Virus record (IMG/VR): IMGVR_UViG_2585427766_000001
DNA length: 34,738 bases
Source: a virus
Taxonomy: Duplodnaviria; Heunggongvirae; Uroviricota; Caudoviricetes
Direction: 5' to 3' (one strand)
Below the pieces are notes generated by a model. The model was given only the letters and a program-made list of their open reading frames with translations, searched no databases and was not told the DNA's origin. The position numbers were made by a program, and so were the translations under genes. Positions 2,730-33,043 of this stretch are shown here, in pieces. Every line of letters starts with the position of its first letter. Positions within the stretch are counted from its first letter, which is position 1.

Positions 2730-4793
2730 TTAATCCTTACGGTAGTGGTACGCCTCAAAACCGCCAGCGTTCAGTGGGATATCTGGCGCCCATTCGGGGT
2801 TAGTGGAGAGAAGCGCGGAAAGCGCTTTATCGTTGAAATCTTCTGTGTCAGGTGATTCGGTGATCACCTCGTCGTGTACCGTCAGCACAATGCTGTAACC
2901 GGCATCTTCGATAAGCGGCATGTTTCCGGCCAGAACGTCGCGGGCGGCCGCCTGGGTGACGTTCTCCACCAGCTTTCCGCCGTAGGTTTTGAGTCGTTGC
3001 CATTTACGCGAATAAGAGTTAACACCCATGTAGGTGATATTCCCTTGTTCGATAACCGGAGACGGGTAGCATACAGCGCGTCCGGATGGTAGCTGTATGC
3101 GCAGCCACGCGCCATCGCGGCGGATTTTAAGATAACCGCAATACAATGTTTTTTGCGGTGTGGCGATTGCTGTGCGGACGGTGCACTCCAGTTCGTACCA
3201 GAAATCACAGGTCGCGGGATGCGCCCGGCGCCAGAGACGTTTAAGTGAGTCGCAGGCGATAAATACCCGTTCAGAAAGCCCGTAGGTCGATTTACGTTTA
3301 ACCGATTCGTCGTACCAGCTTTTCGCCTCGCGGATAACATCGCGGGGAATGTTTGGCAGTGCGGCGTTCGCCAGCCCGTCGAGATCGAGACCGTAAACCA
3401 GAGCAAAAGTGATGAAAGCCGATACACCTCCTCCATAACCCAGACCGAGTTCCATGACTTTACCGATCTGACGCATGTGTTTATCAACATCATCTGGTGC
3501 AATATCGAAAGCTTTTGCATACGCCAGTTTATATAAGTCCGGACCCGTTCCGGCGTCGTACTCTCTGAATGCATTCAGTTTCCATTCTTCTCCCGCCAGC
3601 CATGCCAGCATACGGCCTTCAATGTTCGACAAGTCACTTACCACCAGCTTTTTGCCTGTTGGCGCGATAATGCAGCCACGTAACGCTGAACTGGTTAGTT
3701 CCATGATATTGTCAAACAGCAGGTCTGCACATCCGGCTTTCAGTGCTTCGATGCCTTCGTCTATTTGTTCCTGTTTTAGTGAAGGGCGGGGAAGGTTCTG
3801 GGGCTGGAATAGCCGTCCGGCCCAACGACCGGTACGTGACGCCCCGCAGAACTGTAGCGTACCGCGTAAGCGCCCGTCGTGGCTTACGCCTTTCATCAGT
3901 GCCTTGTATTTACTGGTGCTGGTAGTACTGGCCTGCAGGCGGATAGCCAGCAGTTCTTTCACGGCAGATGGTAAATCGGGGTCGGCAATACGACGTTCCA
4001 GAGTACTGCGTTGCATGTCTGGTAGCTCCACACCGTAGGATTCAACAATGTGCTTAATCAACGCGTCTCGTTGTGTGGCTGCCTGCACTTCGCCATCAGT
4101 CATTTCCTGTGTACGCTTTGCCAGGCGCTTTTGTTCCTGGTCTACCGCGTCGATCGCAGCGCGTGCGAGTTCCACGTCCATGCAGACGCCCCGGTCATTG
4201 ATCTGCTGATCACGATGCCAGAGCGCCAGTTCTGTCCCCTGATAATTCCACTTCGGCAGACGTTTATAGACTTCGCGCATTGCCTCGATATCCAGTCCGG
4301 CGTAAGCAACAAAGCGCCGCCATTCTTCCGGGTGGGTTTTGCTGGTGGCCCGGCGCAGTTTGCTGTTTTTCGGGCGTGGCTTACAGAACAGCTGGATCAG
4401 AGCTTTACCTTCTTTGTCCTTCGCTTTGTCTTGCGGGACGCCTAGTACTTCGCAGAGTTCCCCCAGAGCCCCCGGGAGACCGTGCGCCAGCGCCTGCACC
4501 ATCGTGTCGCGCCAACGTTCGACTGGCGGTGCCAGTCGCGGCATTGCATAACGCAGGACGGTGCGGTCGAAGTGAGAGTTATGAAAATAAAGCAGGGTTT
4601 CAGGGGCTGCGATTGCTTCGTATAAGCCGTGTGGAATACCACCACCGGCAGTGATATCCCATACGTTTACTGGCCCGTCGTTGATAGCCCATGCGAACAG
4701 CATCACTTCAACGCCTTCGGCATACGCATGGGTACCGTTCGTAATAGGGATTTCGCAATAGGTTTCCAGGTCGCCCCATAGTATATTGGACAT
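2730..4793 (-). CDS. Family A DNA polymerase with N-terminal 3'-5' exonuclease domain
   Basis: 687 aa. N-terminal WGDLETY (Exo I, D-x-E); polymerase motif B-like [16 protein letters not shown]; motif C LTVHDEV. Confidence 0.85.
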
Positions 4794-4839
4794 GTGTTTA
4801 CCTTGGTTTTTATTCTATTAACTGATTAAAAGATTAATT

Positions 4840-5469
4840 ATGCATATGATCCAATACTTGATTGACCATACAGAGCATCTGGAGAAAATAGCTGGATATA
4901 TTTTTTCATGTTTGATTGTTATGGGAGTCTGGATAAGAAAGATCATTTTTAATTATAAGTATAAAGAGCCTAAATATGTCAAGAAGTTAATTTTATATTT
5001 AGTTAAGTATGAACGTTATCTGGATAAGGAGGATAAGAGTGCCATAGAAAAAAGAATAAATGATAAAATTATTCGTGATGCGCTGAAATTGCAATCTTCT
5101 TATAACCGAAGTGATGTTATTTACATTTGCAATAGATTAGAAAAAAGACAGTATATAAATCAGGTGATTAAGCTTCAGAATTATATAGAGAAAGATAACG
5201 GAGTGTTTTTCATCAATGTTAATTTTTCAGGTTTTTTATTTATTATTAGTCGTCTGTTTTCCTTTCTGTGTTTTGTGCTGTTTATCCTTTTTTCTATTAT
5301 CTGCATTATTTCCATAGGGCAAAATGAAGGCCTTTTAAATTATCTTGTGTATATGGTTATGACAATAGTTTTAGAGACTGTTGGTTTTTGGATGTATGAT
5401 ACTTTCCCGTCTAAGAAGAAGATCTGTGAACTAAATAAAGAATTGAGGAAGATTAAGATTCCTGAGTGA
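4840..5469 (+). CDS. AT-rich hypothetical polytopic membrane protein (cargo gene)
   Basis: 209-aa ORF on the strand opposite to the surrounding operon. Hand count of three 60-nt lines gives about 27-32% G+C, against about 53% in a neighbouring polymerase line. One N-terminal hydrophobic helix (IAGYIFSCLIVMGVWI), a K/E/Y-rich segment, then C-terminal hydrophobic helices (FLFIISRLFSFLCFVLFILFSIICIISI, LVYMVMTIVLETVGFWMY). Confidence 0.6.
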   Translation: MHMIQYLIDHTEHLEKIAGYIFSCLIVMGVWIRKIIFNYKYKEPKYVKKLILYLVKYERYLDKEDKSAIEKRINDKIIRDALKLQSSYNRSDVIYICNRLEKRQYINQVIKLQNYIEKDNGVFFINVNFSGFLFIISRLFSFLCFVLFILFSIICIISIGQNEGLLNYLVYMVMTIVLETVGFWMYDTFPSKKKICELNKELRKIKIPE

Positions 5470-5487
5470 TTATACGCCTAATCAGCA

Positions 5488-5506
5488 GCCCGGTATTTAA
5501 CCGGGC
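5488..5506. other. Inverted repeat / hairpin between convergent genes
   Basis: GCCCGGT-ATTTAA-ACCGGGC palindrome between the 4840..5469 (+) and 5522..6070 (-) stops. No U-tract on either side, so not a canonical intrinsic terminator. Confidence 0.4.
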
Positions 5507-5521
5507 GTCTATGAAGTAGGG

Positions 5522-6070
5522 TTAAATCAGTGCTTCAGCATCAGCACCTTCGCTGATATCGTCGAAATCGTCAGCGCTTGCCACTCCGCCGCCAGCGAAT
5601 GCATCGCCGTCTCGCAGGAACTGGACTCCGCCGAGTGAGGCATTAATGCGTTTACCGAAATTATTGTCCTGTGCCCAGATATCGATAACGGCGTTTACAT
5701 AGCACCCTGCATAGGGACGTCCATCAGCCTGAATAAGTGGCGAACGATCGCGATCAAGAACAGCTGGGCGCGCTTTGTTAGCAGCATTCAGGAAGAAATT
5801 GCCGGGGAAGCCTTCATACTCTGCTTTTTCATCACCATCATGCAGGCACAGATTGAGTTTTTTCTCCAGTTGGTTATAAATGGGCTCCCACTTCTCTCCC
5901 CATTTTTCCTTCGCTACCTGCTTCATAGCTTTACGGATTTCTTCCAGTTGTGGGTGTTTGGGTGACATTAAAAATACTGCGGAGAAACGTGGATCGCCTT
6001 CGCCGTTTACAGTTTTAGCTTCAAACAGAGACGGGAAGGCCAGACGAACATTGTTCAGCTTCAGTTTCAT
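5522..6070 (-). CDS. DUF2815 family ssDNA-binding-like protein
   Basis: N-terminus MKLKLNNVRLAFPSLFEAK is typical of DUF2815; acidic SSB-like C-terminal tail DDFDDISEGADAEALI. Sits beside a DUF2800 gene, its usual partner. Confidence 0.7.
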   Translation of the reverse strand: MKLKLNNVRLAFPSLFEAKTVNGEGDPRFSAVFLMSPKHPQLEEIRKAMKQVAKEKWGEKWEPIYNQLEKKLNLCLHDGDEKAEYEGFPGNFFLNAANKARPAVLDRDRSPLIQADGRPYAGCYVNAVIDIWAQDNNFGKRINASLGGVQFLRDGDAFAGGGVASADDFDDISEGADAEALI

Positions 6071-17928: not shown

Positions 17929-19394
17929 TGGCACGAAACAAACAAGCCCTGCGGCGAACTGCGCAGGCCACAGCTGATGGTTATGAGAATTTTATTGCCC
18001 GCGTAGGGATGCAGACACCTAACCAGCACTCAGCATCCACCTACCGGGCTAATTTCACCAGTCGTAACCGCATGCTGGTGGAATGGTCCTATCGTTCATC
18101 CTGGATCATCGGCGAAGCAGTCGATGCTATCCCGGATGATATGACCCGCAAAGGCATTCGCATCACGTCGGAAATTGATGCAAAAGATCGTGGCATTCTC
18201 GAATCACAACTGGATGAGTTGCAAATCTGGGATGCGCTGAATGACGTGCTGAAATGGTCGCGCCTCTACGGCGGCGCGGTGGGTTTCATCATGATTGAGG
18301 GGCAGGCACCAATGACCCCGCTGCGACCCGAAACCATCGGTAAGGGCAAGTTTAAGGGGATTCTCCCGCTCGACCGCTGGATGATCGACCCGGTACTGAC
18401 CCGCCGCATTAAAGATATGGGGCCGGACCTGGGTAAACCTGAGTTTTACGATGTGGTGACCACAGCAACGGGAATTCCTGCCTGGCGCATTCATCACAGT
18501 CGCCTGATTCGCTTTGATGGCGTCACGCTGCCATTTCAGCAGAAGATGACCGAGAACGAATGGGGAATGTCGGTTGTAGAGCGTATCTGGGATCGTCTTA
18601 CCGCGTTCGACAGCGCTACTGTCGGCGCGGCGCAGCTGGTCTACAAGGCGCATCTGCGCACCTACAGCGTGGAGAAGCTACGCGAGCTTATCGCACTTGG
18701 TGGTCCTGCGTATGAAGCGTTGCTGAAGAATATCGACCTGATTCGACAGTTCCAGAGCAATGAAGGTATGACACTCATGGACTCGCGGGATAAGTTTGAA
18801 ACGCATCAGTACAGCTTCAGTGGTCTGGATGACATCCTTTCGCAGTTTGCAGAACAGATTAGTGGCGCTGTTGGTATCCCACTGGTGCGGTTGTTCGGAC
18901 AGTCCCCGAAAGGATTTTCTACCGGCGATGCAGACCTTGCCAACTATTACGACCGGGTAAGCTCGTTACAGGAGAGGCGTTTACGTCTTCCGGTGCGGCG
19001 GATACTGGACATCATGCATCGTTCGGAGCTTGGCAAGCCGCTGCCGGACGATTTCACGTTTGAGTTTAACCCGCTCTGGCAAATGTCTGATGTCGATCGC
19101 TCAACGGTGGCGTTAAACACTACCAACGCAATCAGTACGGCGCTGGGTGATGGTCTGATGACACTGAAAGCCGCTATGACTGATTTGCGCGAAAATTCTG
19201 ACGTAACCGGCATCGGGGCATCCATTACCGACGAGGACATCGAGAATGCCGAAGATGAAGCGCCGCCCGGCATCGGCGAATCTGATGACGAACCGCAGGA
19301 ACCGTCAGGCGGAAATCCGCTATCGAACCAGCCTACGCAGGATAGCGCGGGCGGTCGGAGACATCGTAAATGGTCGCTACGATGGTTCAAATGA
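17928..19394 (+). CDS. Portal protein
   Basis: 488 aa directly after the terminase; acidic disordered C-terminus (DEDIENAEDEAPPGIGESDDEPQEP). Confidence 0.7.
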   Translation: MARNKQALRRTAQATADGYENFIARVGMQTPNQHSASTYRANFTSRNRMLVEWSYRSSWIIGEAVDAIPDDMTRKGIRITSEIDAKDRGILESQLDELQIWDALNDVLKWSRLYGGAVGFIMIEGQAPMTPLRPETIGKGKFKGILPLDRWMIDPVLTRRIKDMGPDLGKPEFYDVVTTATGIPAWRIHHSRLIRFDGVTLPFQQKMTENEWGMSVVERIWDRLTAFDSATVGAAQLVYKAHLRTYSVEKLRELIALGGPAYEALLKNIDLIRQFQSNEGMTLMDSRDKFETHQYSFSGLDDILSQFAEQISGAVGIPLVRLFGQSPKGFSTGDADLANYYDRVSSLQERRLRLPVRRILDIMHRSELGKPLPDDFTFEFNPLWQMSDVDRSTVALNTTNAISTALGDGLMTLKAAMTDLRENSDVTGIGASITDEDIENAEDEAPPGIGESDDEPQEPSGGNPLSNQPTQDSAGGRRHRKWSLRWFK

Positions 19395-20019
19395 CAGTAT
19401 CACGGAAATTATTGAGGCGCTGGAACGCTACAGTGAAATCATCACCCCCTGGGCGACAAAGGTCGCGGAAAACTTTACTGCGGACCTAACCCGGCAGAAC
19501 GAGAAAGTTTGGCGGCAACACAGCAAGAACATCAGTCGCGAGCTCCGCAATCTTGTGGAAAGCGCTCCTGTGGGCCAGGTGATGCAATCCATCATCGCCG
19601 AACAGGTCAAGTACATCAAATCGCTCCCCCTCGAGGCGGCTGACAGGGTGTACGACATCCAGAATCGGGCGACAGAAGCTGTTGTGACCGGTGGGAGAGC
19701 AGAATATTTTGCTAAAGAAATAGCCGCATCGGGTGATATAGCAAAGTCCAGAGCTGACCTGATTGCCCGTACTGAACTTGGACGTGCAACCGGCGCGCTG
19801 GATCAGGCGCGTGCGCTGTCAATTGGTTCGAATGGTTATATCTGGCGTACAGCCGAAGATGGTGACGTCAGGCATTCTCATCGGGAAATGGAAGGTAAAT
19901 TTGTCGAATGGGGCAAACCTCCAACGCTTGACGGCATGACAGGTCACGCTGGCGAGCTCCCGAATTGTCGCTGTTATAAAGAAATCGTTTTTCCCACCTC
20001 CCAATCTTATCCCGCCTGA
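19246..20019 (+). CDS. Head morphogenesis protein (Mu F / SPP1 gp7-like)
   Basis: Placed after portal; ARTELGRATGALDQARAL and WRTAEDGDVRHSHREMEGKF resemble the Mu F-like domain. In-frame ATGs lie only at 19246, 19255 and 19285, so the gene overlaps the portal 3' end by at least about 110 nt; the true start is uncertain. Confidence 0.6.
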   Translation: MPKMKRRPASANLMTNRRNRQAEIRYRTSLRRIARAVGDIVNGRYDGSNDSITEIIEALERYSEIITPWATKVAENFTADLTRQNEKVWRQHSKNISRELRNLVESAPVGQVMQSIIAEQVKYIKSLPLEAADRVYDIQNRATEAVVTGGRAEYFAKEIAASGDIAKSRADLIARTELGRATGALDQARALSIGSNGYIWRTAEDGDVRHSHREMEGKFVEWGKPPTLDGMTGHAGELPNCRCYKEIVFPTSQSYPA

Positions 20020-27020: not shown

Positions 27021-27197
27021 CGTTTAACAGCCTGCCGGACGGGCTGTCCTACCTTCTCAATCCGGTTGACGCCGGGTTAATTCCTTATACAGCACTTAAA
27101 GATGGCTCTGTCGATTTGTATGACATTGCTCTCTTGAATGACCATCTGGCGGTAAAAGCGGATAACCAGCGACGCATTGAGAAATGGAGAGAGGATA

Positions 27198-29186
27198 ATG
27201 AACGCTGAAACTATTAAAGATTTCCTCGTCTCGCTTGGCTTCAGTGTGGATGATGCAGGAGCGAAAAAGTTCGGTTCTGTCCTCGCCGGTACAACTGCAA
27301 ATGTCATCAAAATGGGGCTGGCTGTTGAAGGAGCTGCGTTGTCCGTGGTGGCCTTCACGGCTAAGATCGCCTCCGGCCTGGATAATCTTTACTGGGCGTC
27401 ACAGCGCACCGGCGCGACAGTCCAGGGAATTCAGTCTATTGGCTATGCGGTTTCGCAGGTTGGCGGCAGCGTGGACGCTGCGCGATCTTCTCTGGAAAGC
27501 CTATCCCGGTTTATTCGTAACAATCCCGGTGCAGAAGGCTTTCTGAATCGCCTGGGCGTACAGACCCGTGATGCCAGCGGTAACATGCGTGACATGGCCG
27601 CTATTTTTACGGGCGTTGGACAGAAACTCAGCAGCATGCCGTATTACCGGGCTAACCAGTATGCGCAGATGCTGGGCATTGACGAAAATACCCTTATGGC
27701 GATGCGCCGGGGTGTGGGTGGCTTCTCCGGGCAGTACAGCGCAATGGCGAAAGCTATCGGCTTCAATGCTGACGAGGCGGCCAGAAGCTCCAACAAATTT
27801 ATGACCTCCCTGCGTGAGTTTGGCGCGATGGCAGGCATGGCCCGTGACAAAATCGGCTCTAATCTTGCGGGGGGGCTTGCGGGTTCGCTGGACACCCTGC
27901 GCCGCCATATCCTGGACAACTTCCCTCGTATCGAGCAGACCCTGACGAAAGCCATAAAAGGCATTCTGGCGCTCGGGGATATTATCGGGCGGCTGTTCTT
28001 CAGACTGATTGAGGGGACATCAGGTCTTATCACCTGGTGGCAATCGCTGGATAAGCAAACGCGGGAGTTGATCTCGCTGTTTGGCGCACTGACGATTGCG
28101 CTGCGCATTCTGAACAGTACGTTCTGGATGTCGCCGATTGGCCTCATTACCGCGCTGGCGGCGGGTATTGCCCTCCTGTGGGAGGACTATCAGACCTGGA
28201 AGGAAGGCGGCGACAGCCTGATTGACTGGGGCAAGTGGAAACCGGAGGTCGATGCCGCGCTGAAGATGGTTCGTGACCTTAAAACGACCGTTAACGACCT
28301 GGTGAAAGCGCTGGCGAAACTGCTCAATATTGACCCCAAATCATGGTCCCTGAAGTGGGATTTCAGCAACTTCATCGACCAGATGGGCGAATTCAGCAAA
28401 ATGCTGAACATGATCGCCGACCTGCTCAACGCTATCAAAGATGGCCGCTGGGCTGATGCCGTCAGCATCGGCAAACAGATACTTAATCAGGGCAGCGAAA
28501 ATCCGTCAGCGATGCCGATGGTTACAGACAGCGCTAACAGTACTGCCGACTGGATTAAAGAGCACTGGGGATTCGATCCCCGCAGTGTGAGCCGGACGGT
28601 ACGCGGCTGGTTTGGTGATGATGAGCCGGAACAACATGCACAGGCTACGAAACGAGGAGAACGGAATAACAATCCGGGAAACCTTAATTTTGCTGGTCAG
28701 GCAGGGGCTTCTCTTGAACGCCCGGGCGGGCGATTTGCCAGATTTGAAACTGCTTTTGATGGATTACGGGCTCTTGCTCGTCAGTTAATGCTGTACGCCG
28801 GACGGGGAATAAACAGTGTGGAGAAAATTATCTCTACCTGGGCACCTGCGTCTGATAATAACAACACAACTGCGTATATCAGGGCTGTATCGCAACGACT
28901 GGGAGTGGATCCCCGGGCTGCCCTGAATATGAGCGATCCGCAAACCATGTCAGCATTGATGAGCAGCATTATCCAGCATGAGAATGGAAGAAATATCTAT
29001 TCTCGGGAGCTGATTAATAAGGCTGCCGTGGCGGGAATTAGTGGCAAAGTGACAGAGGTTAACCAGCAAAATACCTACCACATTTACGGTGGTGGAGATC
29101 CGCACGCTGTCGGTAATGAGGTTGCACGTCGGCAACAGTCTGCAAATGCTCAGGTCATGCGAAGTAATCAGGTGAGGGTGGGTTAG
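27198..29186 (+). CDS. Tail tape measure protein
   Basis: About 660 aa from ATG 27198 (GGAGAGAGG upstream; track ORF starts at 27177); long helical, Ala/Gly-rich, with a hydrophobic central segment. Confidence 0.7.
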   Translation: MNAETIKDFLVSLGFSVDDAGAKKFGSVLAGTTANVIKMGLAVEGAALSVVAFTAKIASGLDNLYWASQRTGATVQGIQSIGYAVSQVGGSVDAARSSLESLSRFIRNNPGAEGFLNRLGVQTRDASGNMRDMAAIFTGVGQKLSSMPYYRANQYAQMLGIDENTLMAMRRGVGGFSGQYSAMAKAIGFNADEAARSSNKFMTSLREFGAMAGMARDKIGSNLAGGLAGSLDTLRRHILDNFPRIEQTLTKAIKGILALGDIIGRLFFRLIEGTSGLITWWQSLDKQTRELISLFGALTIALRILNSTFWMSPIGLITALAAGIALLWEDYQTWKEGGDSLIDWGKWKPEVDAALKMVRDLKTTVNDLVKALAKLLNIDPKSWSLKWDFSNFIDQMGEFSKMLNMIADLLNAIKDGRWADAVSIGKQILNQGSENPSAMPMVTDSANSTADWIKEHWGFDPRSVSRTVRGWFGDDEPEQHAQATKRGERNNNPGNLNFAGQAGASLERPGGRFARFETAFDGLRALARQLMLYAGRGINSVEKIISTWAPASDNNNTTAYIRAVSQRLGVDPRAALNMSDPQTMSALMSSIIQHENGRNIYSRELINKAAVAGISGKVTEVNQQNTYHIYGGGDPHAVGNEVARRQQSANAQVMRSNQVRVG

Positions 29187-30077: not shown

Positions 30078-31142
30078 ATGTCACAGAACTGGATGAGACA
30101 TTTCGAGCTGCAGCTTGTGGACGGGAACGGTCAGGGAATTGAGCTAAGTGATTTTAAAGTGACCTTTACGATCGACTGGTTCAACATCAGCAGCGCGTCC
30201 CGGGTAGGGACTATCAAAATTTATAACCTCTCGGCAGATACTGTGAACCGAATCACCGGGCGGGAGTTTTCGAAAGTGCGTCTGATTGCGGGTTACGACG
30301 GTATCGCGCCGGAGGTGTCGGCAAGCGACGTCGGGATCGTGCGGGAGGTTGATGCGGCGGACGTGGGCCAGAGTGATGGCCGCAACTACGGACTGATTTT
30401 CAGCGGTGAAATTCGCTACTCGGTTACAGGAAAAGACAGTCCGGTTGATTCCTACGTCCTGATTCAGGCAGCAGATACTGATCTGGCTTTTGCCACCAGT
30501 ATAACCTCACAGACGCTGGCTGCCGGTTACACGGTCGCTGATGTGAACCGTGCGCTGATGAAAGACTTCGAAGCCAAAGGTGCGACCGAAGGCCTGACGC
30601 CTGAAATGCCTGCTACTGTATTCCCCCGGGGGCGGGTGCTCTTTGGCATGACGCGGCATCTAATGGATAACGTAGCCGGGCAATGTGGCGCAACATGGCA
30701 ATTCGTAGACGGTCAGCGCCAGATGGTGGCGAATAATGAATATGTTCACGAAGCGATTGTGCTCAACAGCGCTACCGGGCTTATTGGCATGCCGCAGCAG
30801 ACCATCGGCAACGGCGTAAACGTTCGCGCGCTTATTAATCCGAACATCCGGGTTAATGGGCTCATTCAACTGGATCAGGCTTCCGTATATCGCACCGCGT
30901 TGTCGAACAACGATATCGCTATGGCTGGTGGGCAGATCACCGACCAGAACACGGACGGAAATATTACGCTAAGCGGCACCACATCGCAGCCTGCCAGCAT
31001 CGCAACGGATGGCGTTTATATTGTGCGCGGGATTATGTACACTGGCGATACAAGGGGCCAGGCGTGGTACATGGATATGATGTGCGAAGCGCGCGGTGCG
31101 CAGGATATGCCATCCAGCACTGCTTTTCAGAGAGGATTATAG
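30078..31142 (+). CDS. Putative baseplate hub protein (Mu P-like)
   Basis: 354-aa ORF before the spike and baseplate genes. Positional inference. Confidence 0.5.
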   Translation: MSQNWMRHFELQLVDGNGQGIELSDFKVTFTIDWFNISSASRVGTIKIYNLSADTVNRITGREFSKVRLIAGYDGIAPEVSASDVGIVREVDAADVGQSDGRNYGLIFSGEIRYSVTGKDSPVDSYVLIQAADTDLAFATSITSQTLAAGYTVADVNRALMKDFEAKGATEGLTPEMPATVFPRGRVLFGMTRHLMDNVAGQCGATWQFVDGQRQMVANNEYVHEAIVLNSATGLIGMPQQTIGNGVNVRALINPNIRVNGLIQLDQASVYRTALSNNDIAMAGGQITDQNTDGNITLSGTTSQPASIATDGVYIVRGIMYTGDTRGQAWYMDMMCEARGAQDMPSSTAFQRGL

Positions 31143-31144
31143 AA

Positions 31145-31492
31145 ATGAAACGATGGATATTTTCATTGCTGGCATTAGTGTCTGTTGGTGTAAGTGCAAA
31201 CACCATAACGATGCAATGCGGCAACTTTCGTATGGATGCGATCCCTGATTCATTATTTAAAATCAATGGCGAAACAGTAACGTCCCAAAAAGTAAAAATG
31301 TTGGGTAAAGACGGTACAGGCATGCAGATCAAAATGGACCTGATGCCTGCCAAAGATGGCAACAATTATGGGTTCGAGTATATCCATCGACCTGGCACTA
31401 AAACGCGTTTCCTGAACGTCCAGTTGTTGCAGAACAGCATGGATGCTCCGAAAATTATTGGCTCTTTCCCGTGTAAGAAATTTGTTGGTTGA
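31145..31492 (+). CDS. Small secreted protein with cleavable signal peptide (cargo cassette gene 1)
   Basis: Start at ATG 31145, 2 nt after the hub stop (the track ORF 31064..31492 includes an upstream extension). MKRWIFSLLALVSVGVSA then NTIT: basic n-region, hydrophobic core, A-x-A-like cleavage site. Two Cys (QCGNF, FPCKKF). AT-shifted. Confidence 0.6.
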   Translation: MKRWIFSLLALVSVGVSANTITMQCGNFRMDAIPDSLFKINGETVTSQKVKMLGKDGTGMQIKMDLMPAKDGNNYGFEYIHRPGTKTRFLNVQLLQNSMDAPKIIGSFPCKKFVG

Positions 31493-31499
31493 TTGAGAA

Positions 31500-32054
31500 A
31501 TGAGCAAGCGTTCGTCAATAGATACAACAGAAGAACAAAAGGCAATTGAGACTATAGGCGCTGATTTTATTTCGTCATATTATAAAGATAGATATGAGGA
31601 AGCAAAATCAACATATCGTCGTCTTGAGGACAAAGTTAACTACCTTCTTGCTATTTTAGCTGTAGAAACCTCTGCTCTACTGGCTGTATTTGGGACTGTT
31701 GATTTCAAAAGTGGGCTAAAGAGTAATTGGTTTTTAACATTATCTATACTTTGTGCATATCTGTGCTTTGTTTGTATTGTTATGTGCTTTTTTTTCCTAT
31801 GGCGTACTTGGGGACTGAAAGATATACCAAAAATGCCTATTCATAAGCGAAAAGAAGAGCATGATTTTTTATTTTACGGTGATAAAATTAAAACGCTTAG
31901 ATACCATATGTTTCAGTATGGTAAAGCTGTTGAATTGATCGAAAGTCTTCATAAAGAAAAGGCAGTTTACGCTCGTTATCTTTTTGAAGGAATTGCGTTA
32001 TCTTTCGGTTTTTTCATATTATCGGTTACTTTTCTTTTGATAAATAAGGCATAG
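31500..32054 (+). CDS. Hypothetical integral membrane protein (cargo cassette gene 2)
   Basis: 184 aa with hydrophobic helices YLLAILAVETSALLAVFG, WFLTLSILCAYLCFVCIVMCFFFLW and IALSFGFFILSVTFLLI. Hand count of three lines gives about 25-42% G+C. Confidence 0.6.
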   Translation: MSKRSSIDTTEEQKAIETIGADFISSYYKDRYEEAKSTYRRLEDKVNYLLAILAVETSALLAVFGTVDFKSGLKSNWFLTLSILCAYLCFVCIVMCFFFLWRTWGLKDIPKMPIHKRKEEHDFLFYGDKIKTLRYHMFQYGKAVELIESLHKEKAVYARYLFEGIALSFGFFILSVTFLLINKA

Positions 32055-32057
32055 TTG

Positions 32058-32228
32058 ATGACAACATCAAATAATGACAACTCACAGCAAAGCAAGCCAA
32101 CGCAAGCAGAGCAATCCATGGCTGATTATGAAAGCAGTATAATGCTTGAAGTACCTTTTGGTGGATTGGATTACATGACAGAAAGCGTTAAAGAACCTGA
32201 GTTGGACAATTTTAAACAGAAAAAATAA
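32058..32228 (+). CDS. Small acidic hypothetical protein (cargo cassette gene 3)
   Basis: Hand-translated 56-aa ORF (MTTSNNDNSQQSKPTQAEQSMADYESSIMLEVPFGGLDYMTESVKEPELDNFKQKK), ATG 3 nt after the gene-2 stop; below the track length cutoff. Indexing checked against the antisense track ORF 32082..32336. Confidence 0.4.
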   Translation: MTTSNNDNSQQSKPTQAEQSMADYESSIMLEVPFGGLDYMTESVKEPELDNFKQKK

Positions 32229-32249
32229 ACTTAGAGTTGTTCCTGTAGA

Positions 32250-32271
32250 CCCGCCACTTGGCGGGTTTTTT
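32250..32271 (+). terminator. Intrinsic terminator closing the cargo cassette
   Basis: CCCGCC-ACTT-GGCGGG followed by TTTTTTGTTTT, directly upstream of the spike gene's ribosome-binding site. Confidence 0.7.
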
Positions 32272-32290
32272 GTTTTCAGGAGTTTATCAA

Positions 32291-33043
32291 ATGGCCATAT
32301 CAGACCAGACTCGTAGCGGCGACCTTGCCGAAACATTCAAATCCGAGCGGGAAACCACAAAGAACCAGATCCGCGTCGCTTTGCCTGGCATCGTTCAGTC
32401 ATTCGATCCTGACGCGGTGACGGCGGTTGTGCAGCCTGCTATTCGTTCGGTTGAAACCGACAACGACGGCAACCGCGTAACCAAAAATTACCCGCTGCTG
32501 GTGGATGTGCCGGTGGTATTTCCGCGCGGCGGCGGCTGCACGTTAACTTTCCCGGTAAAAGCCGGCGATGAATGCCTGGTGATTTTTGCCGATCGCTGCA
32601 TCGATTTCTGGTGGCAGAGTGGCGGGATACAGGAGACGGTCGATGACAGAATGCATGATTTATCGGATGCGTTTTGTATTGTCGGTCCCCAGTCGCAGGC
32701 AAGGAGGATTAGCGGTATTAATACCAGTGCCACACAGTTGCGTAGTGATGACGGCAGCACCTATTTTGAGCTTAATCCTGATACCAGGAAAATTAAAATT
32801 GTCGCTCCGGGTGGTCTTGATGTGGTTGCCCCTCTGGCTGATTTTTCTGAGAAAGTAACCATTCATGGCCTGTTAACCTGGATGGGGGGCATGGTGGGGT
32901 CTGTGGTTTCTGGTGTGGCTTCAAAAATCACTGGTGCTGTTGAGTTTTTGGGGAGCGTGAAGGCTAACGGCAAGCCAATCGATGATACGCACACTCATGG
33001 CGGTGTTCAGCGCGGTGGAAGCAATACCGATAGGGTAAACTGA
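32291..33043 (+). CDS. Baseplate spike / assembly protein V-like (Mu gp45-like)
   Basis: ATG 32291 after CAGGAG; the track ORF begins at a TTG inside the terminator. C-terminal HTHGGVQRGG as recalled for gp45/gpV-type spikes. Confidence 0.6.
   Translation: MAISDQTRSGDLAETFKSERETTKNQIRVALPGIVQSFDPDAVTAVVQPAIRSVETDNDGNRVTKNYPLLVDVPVVFPRGGGCTLTFPVKAGDECLVIFADRCIDFWWQSGGIQETVDDRMHDLSDAFCIVGPQSQARRISGINTSATQLRSDDGSTYFELNPDTRKIKIVAPGGLDVVAPLADFSEKVTIHGLLTWMGGMVGSVVSGVASKITGAVEFLGSVKANGKPIDDTHTHGGVQRGGSNTDRVN

Follow-up and report, generated by a model that had tools for sequence, protein, structure and literature searches.

A low-G+C stretch between the baseplate hub and spike genes of an Escherichia coli prophage as the occupied state of an accessory gene hotspot, and a candidate membrane defence pair within it

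The stretch of viral DNA analyzed here (IMG/VR record IMGVR_UViG_2585427766_000001, Caudoviricetes) measures 34,738 nucleotides (nt), and is referred to as the window. Three small genes, orfA, orfB and orfC, mark its positions 31,145 to 32,271, between the genes coding for the baseplate hub and the membrane-puncturing spike of a prophage tail. This AT-rich 1.1 kb stretch represents a recombination hotspot for accessory genes in its occupied state, and is made of two stacked independent units, orfA followed by the orfB-orfC pair. According to profile matches, OrfB probably belongs, as a distant member, to the small membrane effectors of the PycTM/SLATT class. Membrane-level defence of any kind against other phages appears the most likely role of the orfB-orfC pair, a reading held with modest confidence.

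The three open reading frames (ORFs) are tightly packed between the hub stop codon (31142) and the spike ATG (32291), all on the plus strand, at the coordinates and with the lengths claimed in a sequence-only reading of the window. orfA (31145–31492) codes for an exported protein of 115 amino acids (aa), orfB (31500–32054) for a 184-aa protein with three transmembrane (TM) helices, orfC (32058–32228) for an acidic, hydrophilic product of 56 aa. The intergenic gaps measure 2, 7 and 3 nt from the hub gene onwards, and ribosome-binding sites are good. The AT shift claimed in the same reading holds on a windowed calculation. The guanine plus cytosine (G+C) content of the 1127-nt stretch is 37.4%, all windows of the same size averaging 50.7% (standard deviation 4.0) and the neighbours 53–54%; it is the lowest for its size in 34.7 kb, tied with an island at about 4500–5600. 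G+C amounts to 42.2% in orfA, 33.7% in orfB and 36.8% in orfC, against 54.3% in the hub and 52.7% in the spike gene. At third codon positions it is 47% in orfA and 25% in orfB, against 55–63% in the neighbours. The composition is foreign to the surrounding operon.

The hotspot is delimited by two conserved genes, both on the plus strand. The left anchor, the 354-aa hub gene (30078–31142), matches PHROG 196 'baseplate hub' (E 8e-89), and weakly the Pfam family E217_GP41. The right anchor, the 250-aa spike gene (32291–33043), features the Pfam spike N-terminal domain (E 7e-44) and the GpV Apex motif. The hub-spike module was found in 353 of 5426 complete E. coli genomes (about 6.5%), the cassette of the window in only 21 of the 353. 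The remaining E. coli modules mostly align in two pieces, and the inserts vary in length and annotation (DUF4282, DUF2335, YafO toxin, DUF4236, hypothetical proteins). The interval was surveyed in 53 loci, denoted by L numbers, which include E. coli, deposited phages, and 46 loci from a one-genome-per-species collection. Hub and spike are adjacent in three of them (L052, L058, L062), where the gap is reduced to 85–96 nt and holds no ORF. In seven loci (L046, L047, L050, L051, L054, L055, L060) a gap of about 360–400 nt holds an orfA homologue alone. In the other 43, the gap is 700–2150 nt long, and orfA, or occasionally another gene in its place, is followed by variable cargo. Cargo proteins of the 53 loci fall into about 40 unrelated clusters, and G+C of the gap is below that of the hub gene in nearly all loci, the exceptions being among the three lacking inserts. 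The sequence-only reading had taken the three genes for non-structural accessory genes, and had proposed a comparison of related tail modules; the three loci in which hub and spike are adjacent without any insert bear it out.

Some cargos are known or putative defence genes. The hub-spike slot of a Pantoea dispersa prophage (L043) holds PD-lambda-1 (E 2.8e-82), which corresponds to SNIPE, a validated membrane-bound nuclease cutting phage DNA during injection (PMC13190303). The defence candidate PDC-S42 resides in the slot of L044, a TM-anchored Mrr_cat nuclease in that of L035, a YafO toxin with an upstream partner in those of L005 and L030, an exported tRNA_anti-like OB-fold protein in that of L021. 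Small membrane or exported proteins, such as DUF4282, DUF2335 and the signal-peptide proteins of L006, L021 and L028, are also found among the slot cargos. Such varied cargo, known defence genes included, between conserved flanks characterises the slot as an accessory or defence hotspot of prophages. The phage exclusion role proposed earlier for the window genes is made plausible by the SNIPE, YafO, TM-Mrr and PDC-S42 genes which sister prophages carry in this slot, but the unit to which it had been ascribed, a secreted plus a membrane protein, is not supported. Literature searches, including the terms 8xMP, SEN34, Brunovirus, defence hotspots with baseplate, and three RefSeq accessions, returned no description of the slot or of the genes.

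Two side observations concern the surveyed loci. A two-gene cargo (clusters C2 and C3) recurs in L003, L019, L020, L025 and L037, and encodes proteins of about 250 aa and about 130–140 aa. Neither matches Pfam or PADLOC, and the second features, by our own reading, a HEPN-like R..YY..H motif; the pair may be regarded as another candidate system in the slot. Hub genes 92% and 98% identical to that of this enterobacterial prophage were found in assemblies of unrelated taxa, respectively in L024, labelled Chryseobacterium sp. 18061, and in L061, a 255-nt contig labelled Bacillus sp.; contamination or mislabelling is likely.

A clean intrinsic terminator had been noticed downstream of orfC, and is present (32247–32278, plus strand). 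The hairpin (32247–32268) with its T-run has a folding energy of -20.2 kcal/mol (z = -4.2 against 200 shuffles). It had been viewed as the cassette's own, and in this respect the comparison leads elsewhere. Inspection of the 90 nt preceding the spike start codon in 48 loci revealed the hairpin AACCCGCC-N4-GGCGGGTTTTTT directly upstream of the spike ribosome-binding site in 41, regardless of the cargo, and in all three loci lacking inserts. The loci lacking it are mainly those of Rahnella, Serratia and Pantoea in which orfA abuts the spike gene. The 7-bp stem is preserved in an alignment of 20 sequences, with compensatory changes in three of the seven pairs. Being conserved whatever the cargo, even where there is none, the terminator is therefore a backbone element, which marks the right edge of the hotspot, and cargo is inserted between the orfA stop codon and the hairpin.

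The first unit, orfA, is best viewed as an old accessory gene, quasi-core, in a fixed position directly downstream of the hub gene. Homologues of full length (110–122 aa) are found a few nt downstream of the hub gene in about 44 of the 53 loci, next to many different downstream cargos, and in Enterobacterales the family numbers at least 386 clusters at 90% identity. No Pfam domain is found in any of them; an N-terminal signal peptide and two invariant cysteines are common to all. In the window protein the signal-peptide-like segment ends at VSA|N, and C25 and C110, the only cysteines, are probably disulfide-bonded. Three different cargos accompany the window orfA allele (93–96% aa identity): orfB-orfC in the window itself, a gene for a 121-aa exported protein in L006, and in L018 an orfB-orfC pair with an orfB only 26% identical. 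The G+C content is below that of the hub gene in every locus in which orfA stands alone. OrfA is interpreted as an accessory periplasmic protein, not a part of the virion, because of the cleavable signal peptide, the absence from some relatives, and the G+C content lower than that of the hub gene.

OrfA, modelled as a small periplasmic beta-barrel of generic fold, matches no named family in Pfam, NCBIfam, PHROGs or PADLOC, and a search for lysozyme inhibitors of the PliC/MliC family gave neither a profile match nor the inhibitory loop motif. Profile searches of PDB sequences returned nothing credible for OrfA or OrfB. A possible target lies in the same block of tail genes. The C-terminal domain of the tape measure gene (27177–29186; domain at about 28650–29050, plus strand), missed by Pfam, matches the solved 'Endolysin' 7q47_A (E 1e-13) and Gp29 of 9vvp (E 2e-20), matches which indicate a tail-borne muralytic domain. 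T4 Spackle inhibits the gp5 lysozyme. Because the tape measure C-terminus is homologous to a solved endolysin, OrfA might by analogy inhibit this domain and exclude related phages in a Spackle-like manner, an idea that we regard as unlikely. It is directly testable, as orfA lies in the same block as the tape measure gene. OrfA is a very common exported prophage protein.

The second unit is the orfB-orfC pair, best described as a rare, mobile two-gene module separate from orfA. A single three-gene cassette, as first supposed, does not fit the survey: orfA and orfB assort independently, and the conserved pair is not the secreted plus the membrane protein, but orfB plus orfC. All orfB alleles examined, even at 26% orfB identity, are followed by orfC, with orfC aa identities of 19–47%. 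Linkage was established in L011, L013, L015, L017 (a degraded remnant), L074 and 14 IMG/VR contigs (L075–L088). Relatives of orfB sharing at least 36% aa identity always lie between hub or orfA and spike, and are followed by an orfC homologue at -4 to +13 nt. Independent assortment is seen in L079, where an orfB-orfC pair 98% identical to that of the window is flanked by orfA and spike genes only 65% and 68% identical, and in L087, where a 94% identical orfA precedes a 50% identical orfB. In Klebsiella aerogenes and Serratia the gene upstream of orfB-orfC encodes a different protein, of 296 or 224 aa. The Citrobacter locus L018 encodes a 186-aa OrfB relative, 26% identical, in which the RRLEDK motif is retained, and next to it is an ORF of 61–65 aa featuring VPGSKVVTESY, to be compared with VPFGGLDYMTESV in the window. 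In eight E. coli genomes, including IAI1, an intact pair with OrfB about 50% identical in protein is left unannotated in RefSeq; in IAI1 it occupies the same slot, at 1706–2236 and 2233–2412 of L074 (NC_011741.1). orfB and orfC overlap by ATGA in both L018 and L074. The pair marks the genomes of enterohaemorrhagic E. coli O103:H2, O45:H2 and O55:H7, and of the enterotoxigenic strain H10407.

OrfC is short, has a net charge of -5, carries the motif VPFGG..TES, and matches no named family in Pfam, NCBIfam, PHROGs or PADLOC. Two interpretations of the orfB-orfC junction were rejected. Read-through of the orfB stop codon to yield an OrfB-OrfC fusion (the orfB TAG and the orfC TTG or ATG are in frame at 32052–32060) is at odds with other alleles, which are out of frame or overlap by ATGA. 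A double-glycine leader in orfC (VPFGG) was dismissed as well, the GG not being conserved and the flanking residues not fitting the leader consensus.

The association extends to remote OrfB homologues. In four of five remote two-gene relatives a hydrophilic ORF of 32–53 aa abuts or overlaps the stop codon of the orfB-like gene. In 12 of 73 relatives a hydrophilic tail of 39–86 aa is fused after the third TM helix, often with a methionine at the expected start of a separate gene, and two of the fused forms were verified as single ORFs on their contigs. On the basis of this split-or-fused pattern, OrfB and OrfC are argued to act together physically. Remote relatives reside in the cargo of mobile elements: one (L070) at the cargo end of a Tn7-like element, another (L071/L072) in a prophage in which a toxSAS gene and a gene for a Panacea domain are also found. 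A third, the fused-tail protein P0137, is encoded on a short metagenomic contig, directly downstream of a gene (L066 241–732) for an Acb2/Tad1-hairpin domain, the fold of anti-CBASS and anti-Thoeris sponges.

The OrfB family is tiny, 12 clusters being found among 5.8 billion sequences, and tblastn searches of deposited phage genomes and plasmids gave no match. Searching 1.84 billion proteins with a family profile yielded 78 representatives, with full-length alignments in nearly all cases. In the window protein the TM helices span residues 49–67, 81–99 and 163–181. The same plan was recognized in 17 of 19 homologues examined: a charged N-terminal helix of 30–60 aa leads into TM1, which a short loop connects to TM2, and a basic helical loop of 52–75 aa then precedes a third TM helix. 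Nearly invariant residues are K45 and K154. The structural model is all-helical (predicted local distance difference test score, pLDDT, 80), with helices at 21–66, 77–104 and 129–183; the first two form a two-TM hairpin, and the TM1 and TM2 predictions hold in 17 of the 19 homologues.

The window OrfB and 72 relatives found by the profile were scanned against family libraries. PADLOC PycTM models were matched by 21 of the 73 sequences (best E 1.1e-8), NCBIfam SLATT_1 by six (best E 1.2e-6); a few matched CBASS '2TM' effectors and CARF-TM, one the PADLOC RT-SLATT model, and any other family was matched by at most two. Matches to PycTM, SLATT, CBASS-2TM and CARF-TM are enriched in the OrfB superfamily across two independent libraries. 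The window OrfB matches the '2TM effector' model weakly (E 7e-3). Matches to the Pfam family 8xMP were also weak (best E 1.8e-4; at best 0.019 in six of the 11 closer family members), and the PHROG families matched by the cassette (3443, 18554, 18231) are all of unknown function. The statement that no family could be recognized for the three proteins stands, in that none matches a named family. In one strain, E. coli 2000-3039 (NZ_CP101302.1, hit H67; protein P0006), a 1-nt indel in orfB results in a truncated product of 115 aa, which may denote the inactivation of a costly gene.

From these data a defence function acting at the membrane can be sketched. OrfB would oligomerise in the inner membrane, and either impair its integrity or keep phages from entering. 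OrfC, free in the window and a C-terminal tail in some remote relatives, would restrain OrfB or couple it to an infection cue. A Pycsar or a CBASS system is ruled out: no nucleotide cyclase is annotated anywhere in the prophage or was seen within 4 kb of seven remote OrfB homologues, and no CD-NTase was found in the prophage or near any of the seven. As there is no cyclase, the trigger would be other than a Pycsar- or CBASS-type second messenger produced by a neighbouring gene. An abortive-infection pore restrained or triggered through OrfC is a tentative version of this scheme, less probable than membrane-level defence taken broadly. Doubt increases when a self-contained SLATT/PycTM-like effector gated by a restraining and sensing peptide is combined with a Spackle-like OrfA, and with a slot devoted to envelope-stage immunity throughout a widely distributed enterobacterial prophage family; such a combination is rather unlikely.

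Several points weigh against the assignment of OrfB to the PycTM/SLATT class and against a defensive role. The window OrfB matches PycTM at E 2.6e-4 only, over positions 8–109 of the 165 in the profile, and has no match in NCBIfam, or in Pfam at E ≤ 0.1. Foldseek comparisons of its model with PDB and BFVD yielded generic long-helix matches only, all at E > 0.09. A hidden Markov model built on close orfC sequences beat shuffled sequences for four of 17 remote peptides and tails (L018, L072, L064, P0148); for this reason a conserved architecture is claimed, not a conserved sequence. According to the positive-inside rule, the N-terminus of OrfB is in and the C-terminus periplasmic, so that fused tails would be periplasmic, and free OrfC has no signal peptide; some of the fused tails are rich in lysine and arginine. 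Either the third OrfB helix is not membrane-spanning in the resting state, or the free and the fused forms work differently. Most hotspot cargo belongs to no known family, which makes guilt by association partial. Finally, no convincing sigma-70 promoter was found upstream of orfA or orfB, none emerging from a consensus scan. The genes are tightly coupled to the late operon, and may be expressed only in lytic growth. The best site in a position weight matrix search (31015–31043) scores 8.2, a level met about once per kb. Given the tight packing and the lack of a promoter above background, late, Q-antiterminated transcription of orfA-orfC would be expected; to protect the lysogen, the genes would above all have to be expressed from the repressed prophage.

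Other explanations draw on the same data. OrfB could block genome entry in the inner membrane without killing the cell, as P22 SieA, T4 Imm or HK97 gp15, OrfC being an accessory and OrfA blocking a periplasmic step. Such a superinfection exclusion would suit a module set inside the tail genes, beside those for envelope penetration, in a slot which elsewhere hosts SNIPE, membrane-bound and active during genome injection, and several other small membrane or exported proteins; the endolysin-like tape measure C-terminus fits as well. No PHROG, Pfam or PADLOC family so annotated is matched, however, and the sole family signal in OrfB is that of pore-forming suicide effectors. We regard exclusion of this type as improbable. 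Smaller still is the chance that the pair is an addiction module of the toxin-antitoxin type, with OrfB as membrane toxin and OrfC as labile antitoxin, which would stabilise the prophage or its cargo and have no dedicated anti-phage role. The two small genes are tightly or translationally coupled, as the ATGA overlaps in L018 and L074 indicate, other prophages carry a YafO toxin-antitoxin pair in the same slot, and orfB is frameshifted in one strain, as a costly gene may be. Stable in-frame fusions of the partner are nonetheless better suited to an autoinhibitory or sensor tail than to a labile antitoxin. OrfC lacks a DNA-binding domain by which it could autoregulate, and neither protein matches a toxin-antitoxin family.

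The genes could also serve the phage itself late in its cycle, by conditioning the membrane, timing lysis, or blocking re-adsorption of the progeny, and would then be transcribed only by read-through of the Q-antiterminated late operon. The lack of an autonomous promoter and the gaps of 2–7 nt tie the genes to the preceding late gene, and the Q-family antiterminator of the prophage would read through the terminator. Yet the genes are dispensable: most relatives lack them and carry unrelated cargo instead. The prophage encodes a holin and an endolysin of its own, besides a downstream lysis-region gene, and remote relatives are found outside phages, as in the Tn7-like cargo; the odds are poor that a phage-cycle function accounts for the genes. 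A structural or assembly role in the baseplate, for which the position within the baseplate gene block is the sole argument, is highly improbable: hub and spike are adjacent in L052, L058 and L062, OrfA carries a cleavable signal peptide, OrfB is integral to the membrane, and cargo is interchangeable. Membrane-level defence by orfB-orfC remains the preferred reading; we infer it from the OrfB family signal, the company kept in the slot, and the recurrence of remote relatives in mobile-element cargo (the Tn7-like end, the toxSAS prophage, the contig with the Acb2/Tad1-like gene).

By sequence, the window is a SEN34/Brunovirus-like temperate myovirus prophage. Its sequence shares 99.9% identity with a prophage which lies next to yfhH/mltF/purL in E. 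coli O103:H2 str. 12009. Relatives include Salmonella phage SEN34 (genus Brunovirus), Yersinia phage YP3, Klebsiella phage Mulock, and the Escherichia phages vB_EcoM-606R2, -689R2, -611R5 and -683R1. The tail block reads tape measure, Dit-like, Pam3-gp18-like plug, hub, orfA-orfB-orfC, membrane-puncturing spike, sheath-initiator-like, baseplate J; the label sheath-initiator-like is taken from homologues in related loci. Two genes are frameshifted pseudogenes according to RefSeq: one for a minor head protein (L001 9285–10020; about 19284–20019 in the window), and pinE (L001 27544–28097, past the end of the window), which adjoins an invertible tail-fibre segment with opposed tfa genes. The prophage may therefore be defective. 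A second AT-rich island (about 28% G+C) is found in the early region at 4840–5469, plus strand. Its 209-aa ORF (WP_000551021.1) features TM segments, runs on the strand opposite to the flanking genes for a DNA polymerase (2730–4793) and a DUF2815 protein (5522–6070), and has no match in Pfam or PADLOC; it looks like another moron.

Prophage hotspots are a productive source of new anti-phage systems. The slot described here spans about 6.5% of complete E. coli genomes and many other Enterobacterales, and SNIPE together with dozens of uncharacterised cargos makes up a list of candidates. If orfB-orfC proves active, effectors of the PycTM/SLATT type can work without a nucleotide-synthesising partner, which bears on how such pores are gated.

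Hotspots of this general kind are known. Defence hotspots in P2 and P4 prophages and satellites were reportedly described by Rousset et al. in 2022, and morons are classical residents of lambdoid late operons, as in HK97 and HK022 (lambda lom and bor, HK97 gp15). The features shared with them are conserved late flanks, exchangeable AT-shifted cargo, a terminator at the downstream edge, and validated defence cargo. The hub-spike slot differs in its position, in the SEN34/Brunovirus-like lineage, in the terminator being part of the backbone, and in that no cargo promoter was detected for the window allele. Cassette proteins show no sequence-family match, in PHROG or Pfam, to SieA/SieB, Imm, Sp, Cor, Llp or HK97 gp15. 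OrfA shares no sequence family with T4 Spackle or PliC/MliC, and its modelled barrel is generic, whereas Spackle is helical. CapRel SJ46 is a fused toxin-antitoxin sensor, in which the inhibitory or sensor element may be likened to the orfC-like tails, either a separate polypeptide or a C-terminal extension; the analogy is one of logic only, folds and activities being unrelated. SNIPE occupies the identical slot in L043 and is membrane-anchored, but is a nuclease encoded by one gene (DUF4041 plus T5orf172), and shares no homology with orfB or orfC. A further parallel is with PycTM/SLATT proteins, and with the CBASS 2TM, CARF-TM and DRT-associated SLATT effectors, with which OrfB would share the small helical inner-membrane design and the N-terminal cytoplasmic helix running into a TM hairpin. 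PycTM is described as killing infected cells by membrane disruption, a form of abortive infection (PMC11224242). OrfB departs from this class in having a third TM helix and an obligate hydrophilic partner of 32–65 aa, at times fused, and the match of the window protein is marginal; moreover, orfB-orfC have no cyclase, CD-NTase, reverse transcriptase or CARF partner in the prophage or in seven remote contexts. A prophage defence or moron hotspot is of an already known kind, and what is new is a probable SLATT/PycTM-like effector with an unusual peptide partner.

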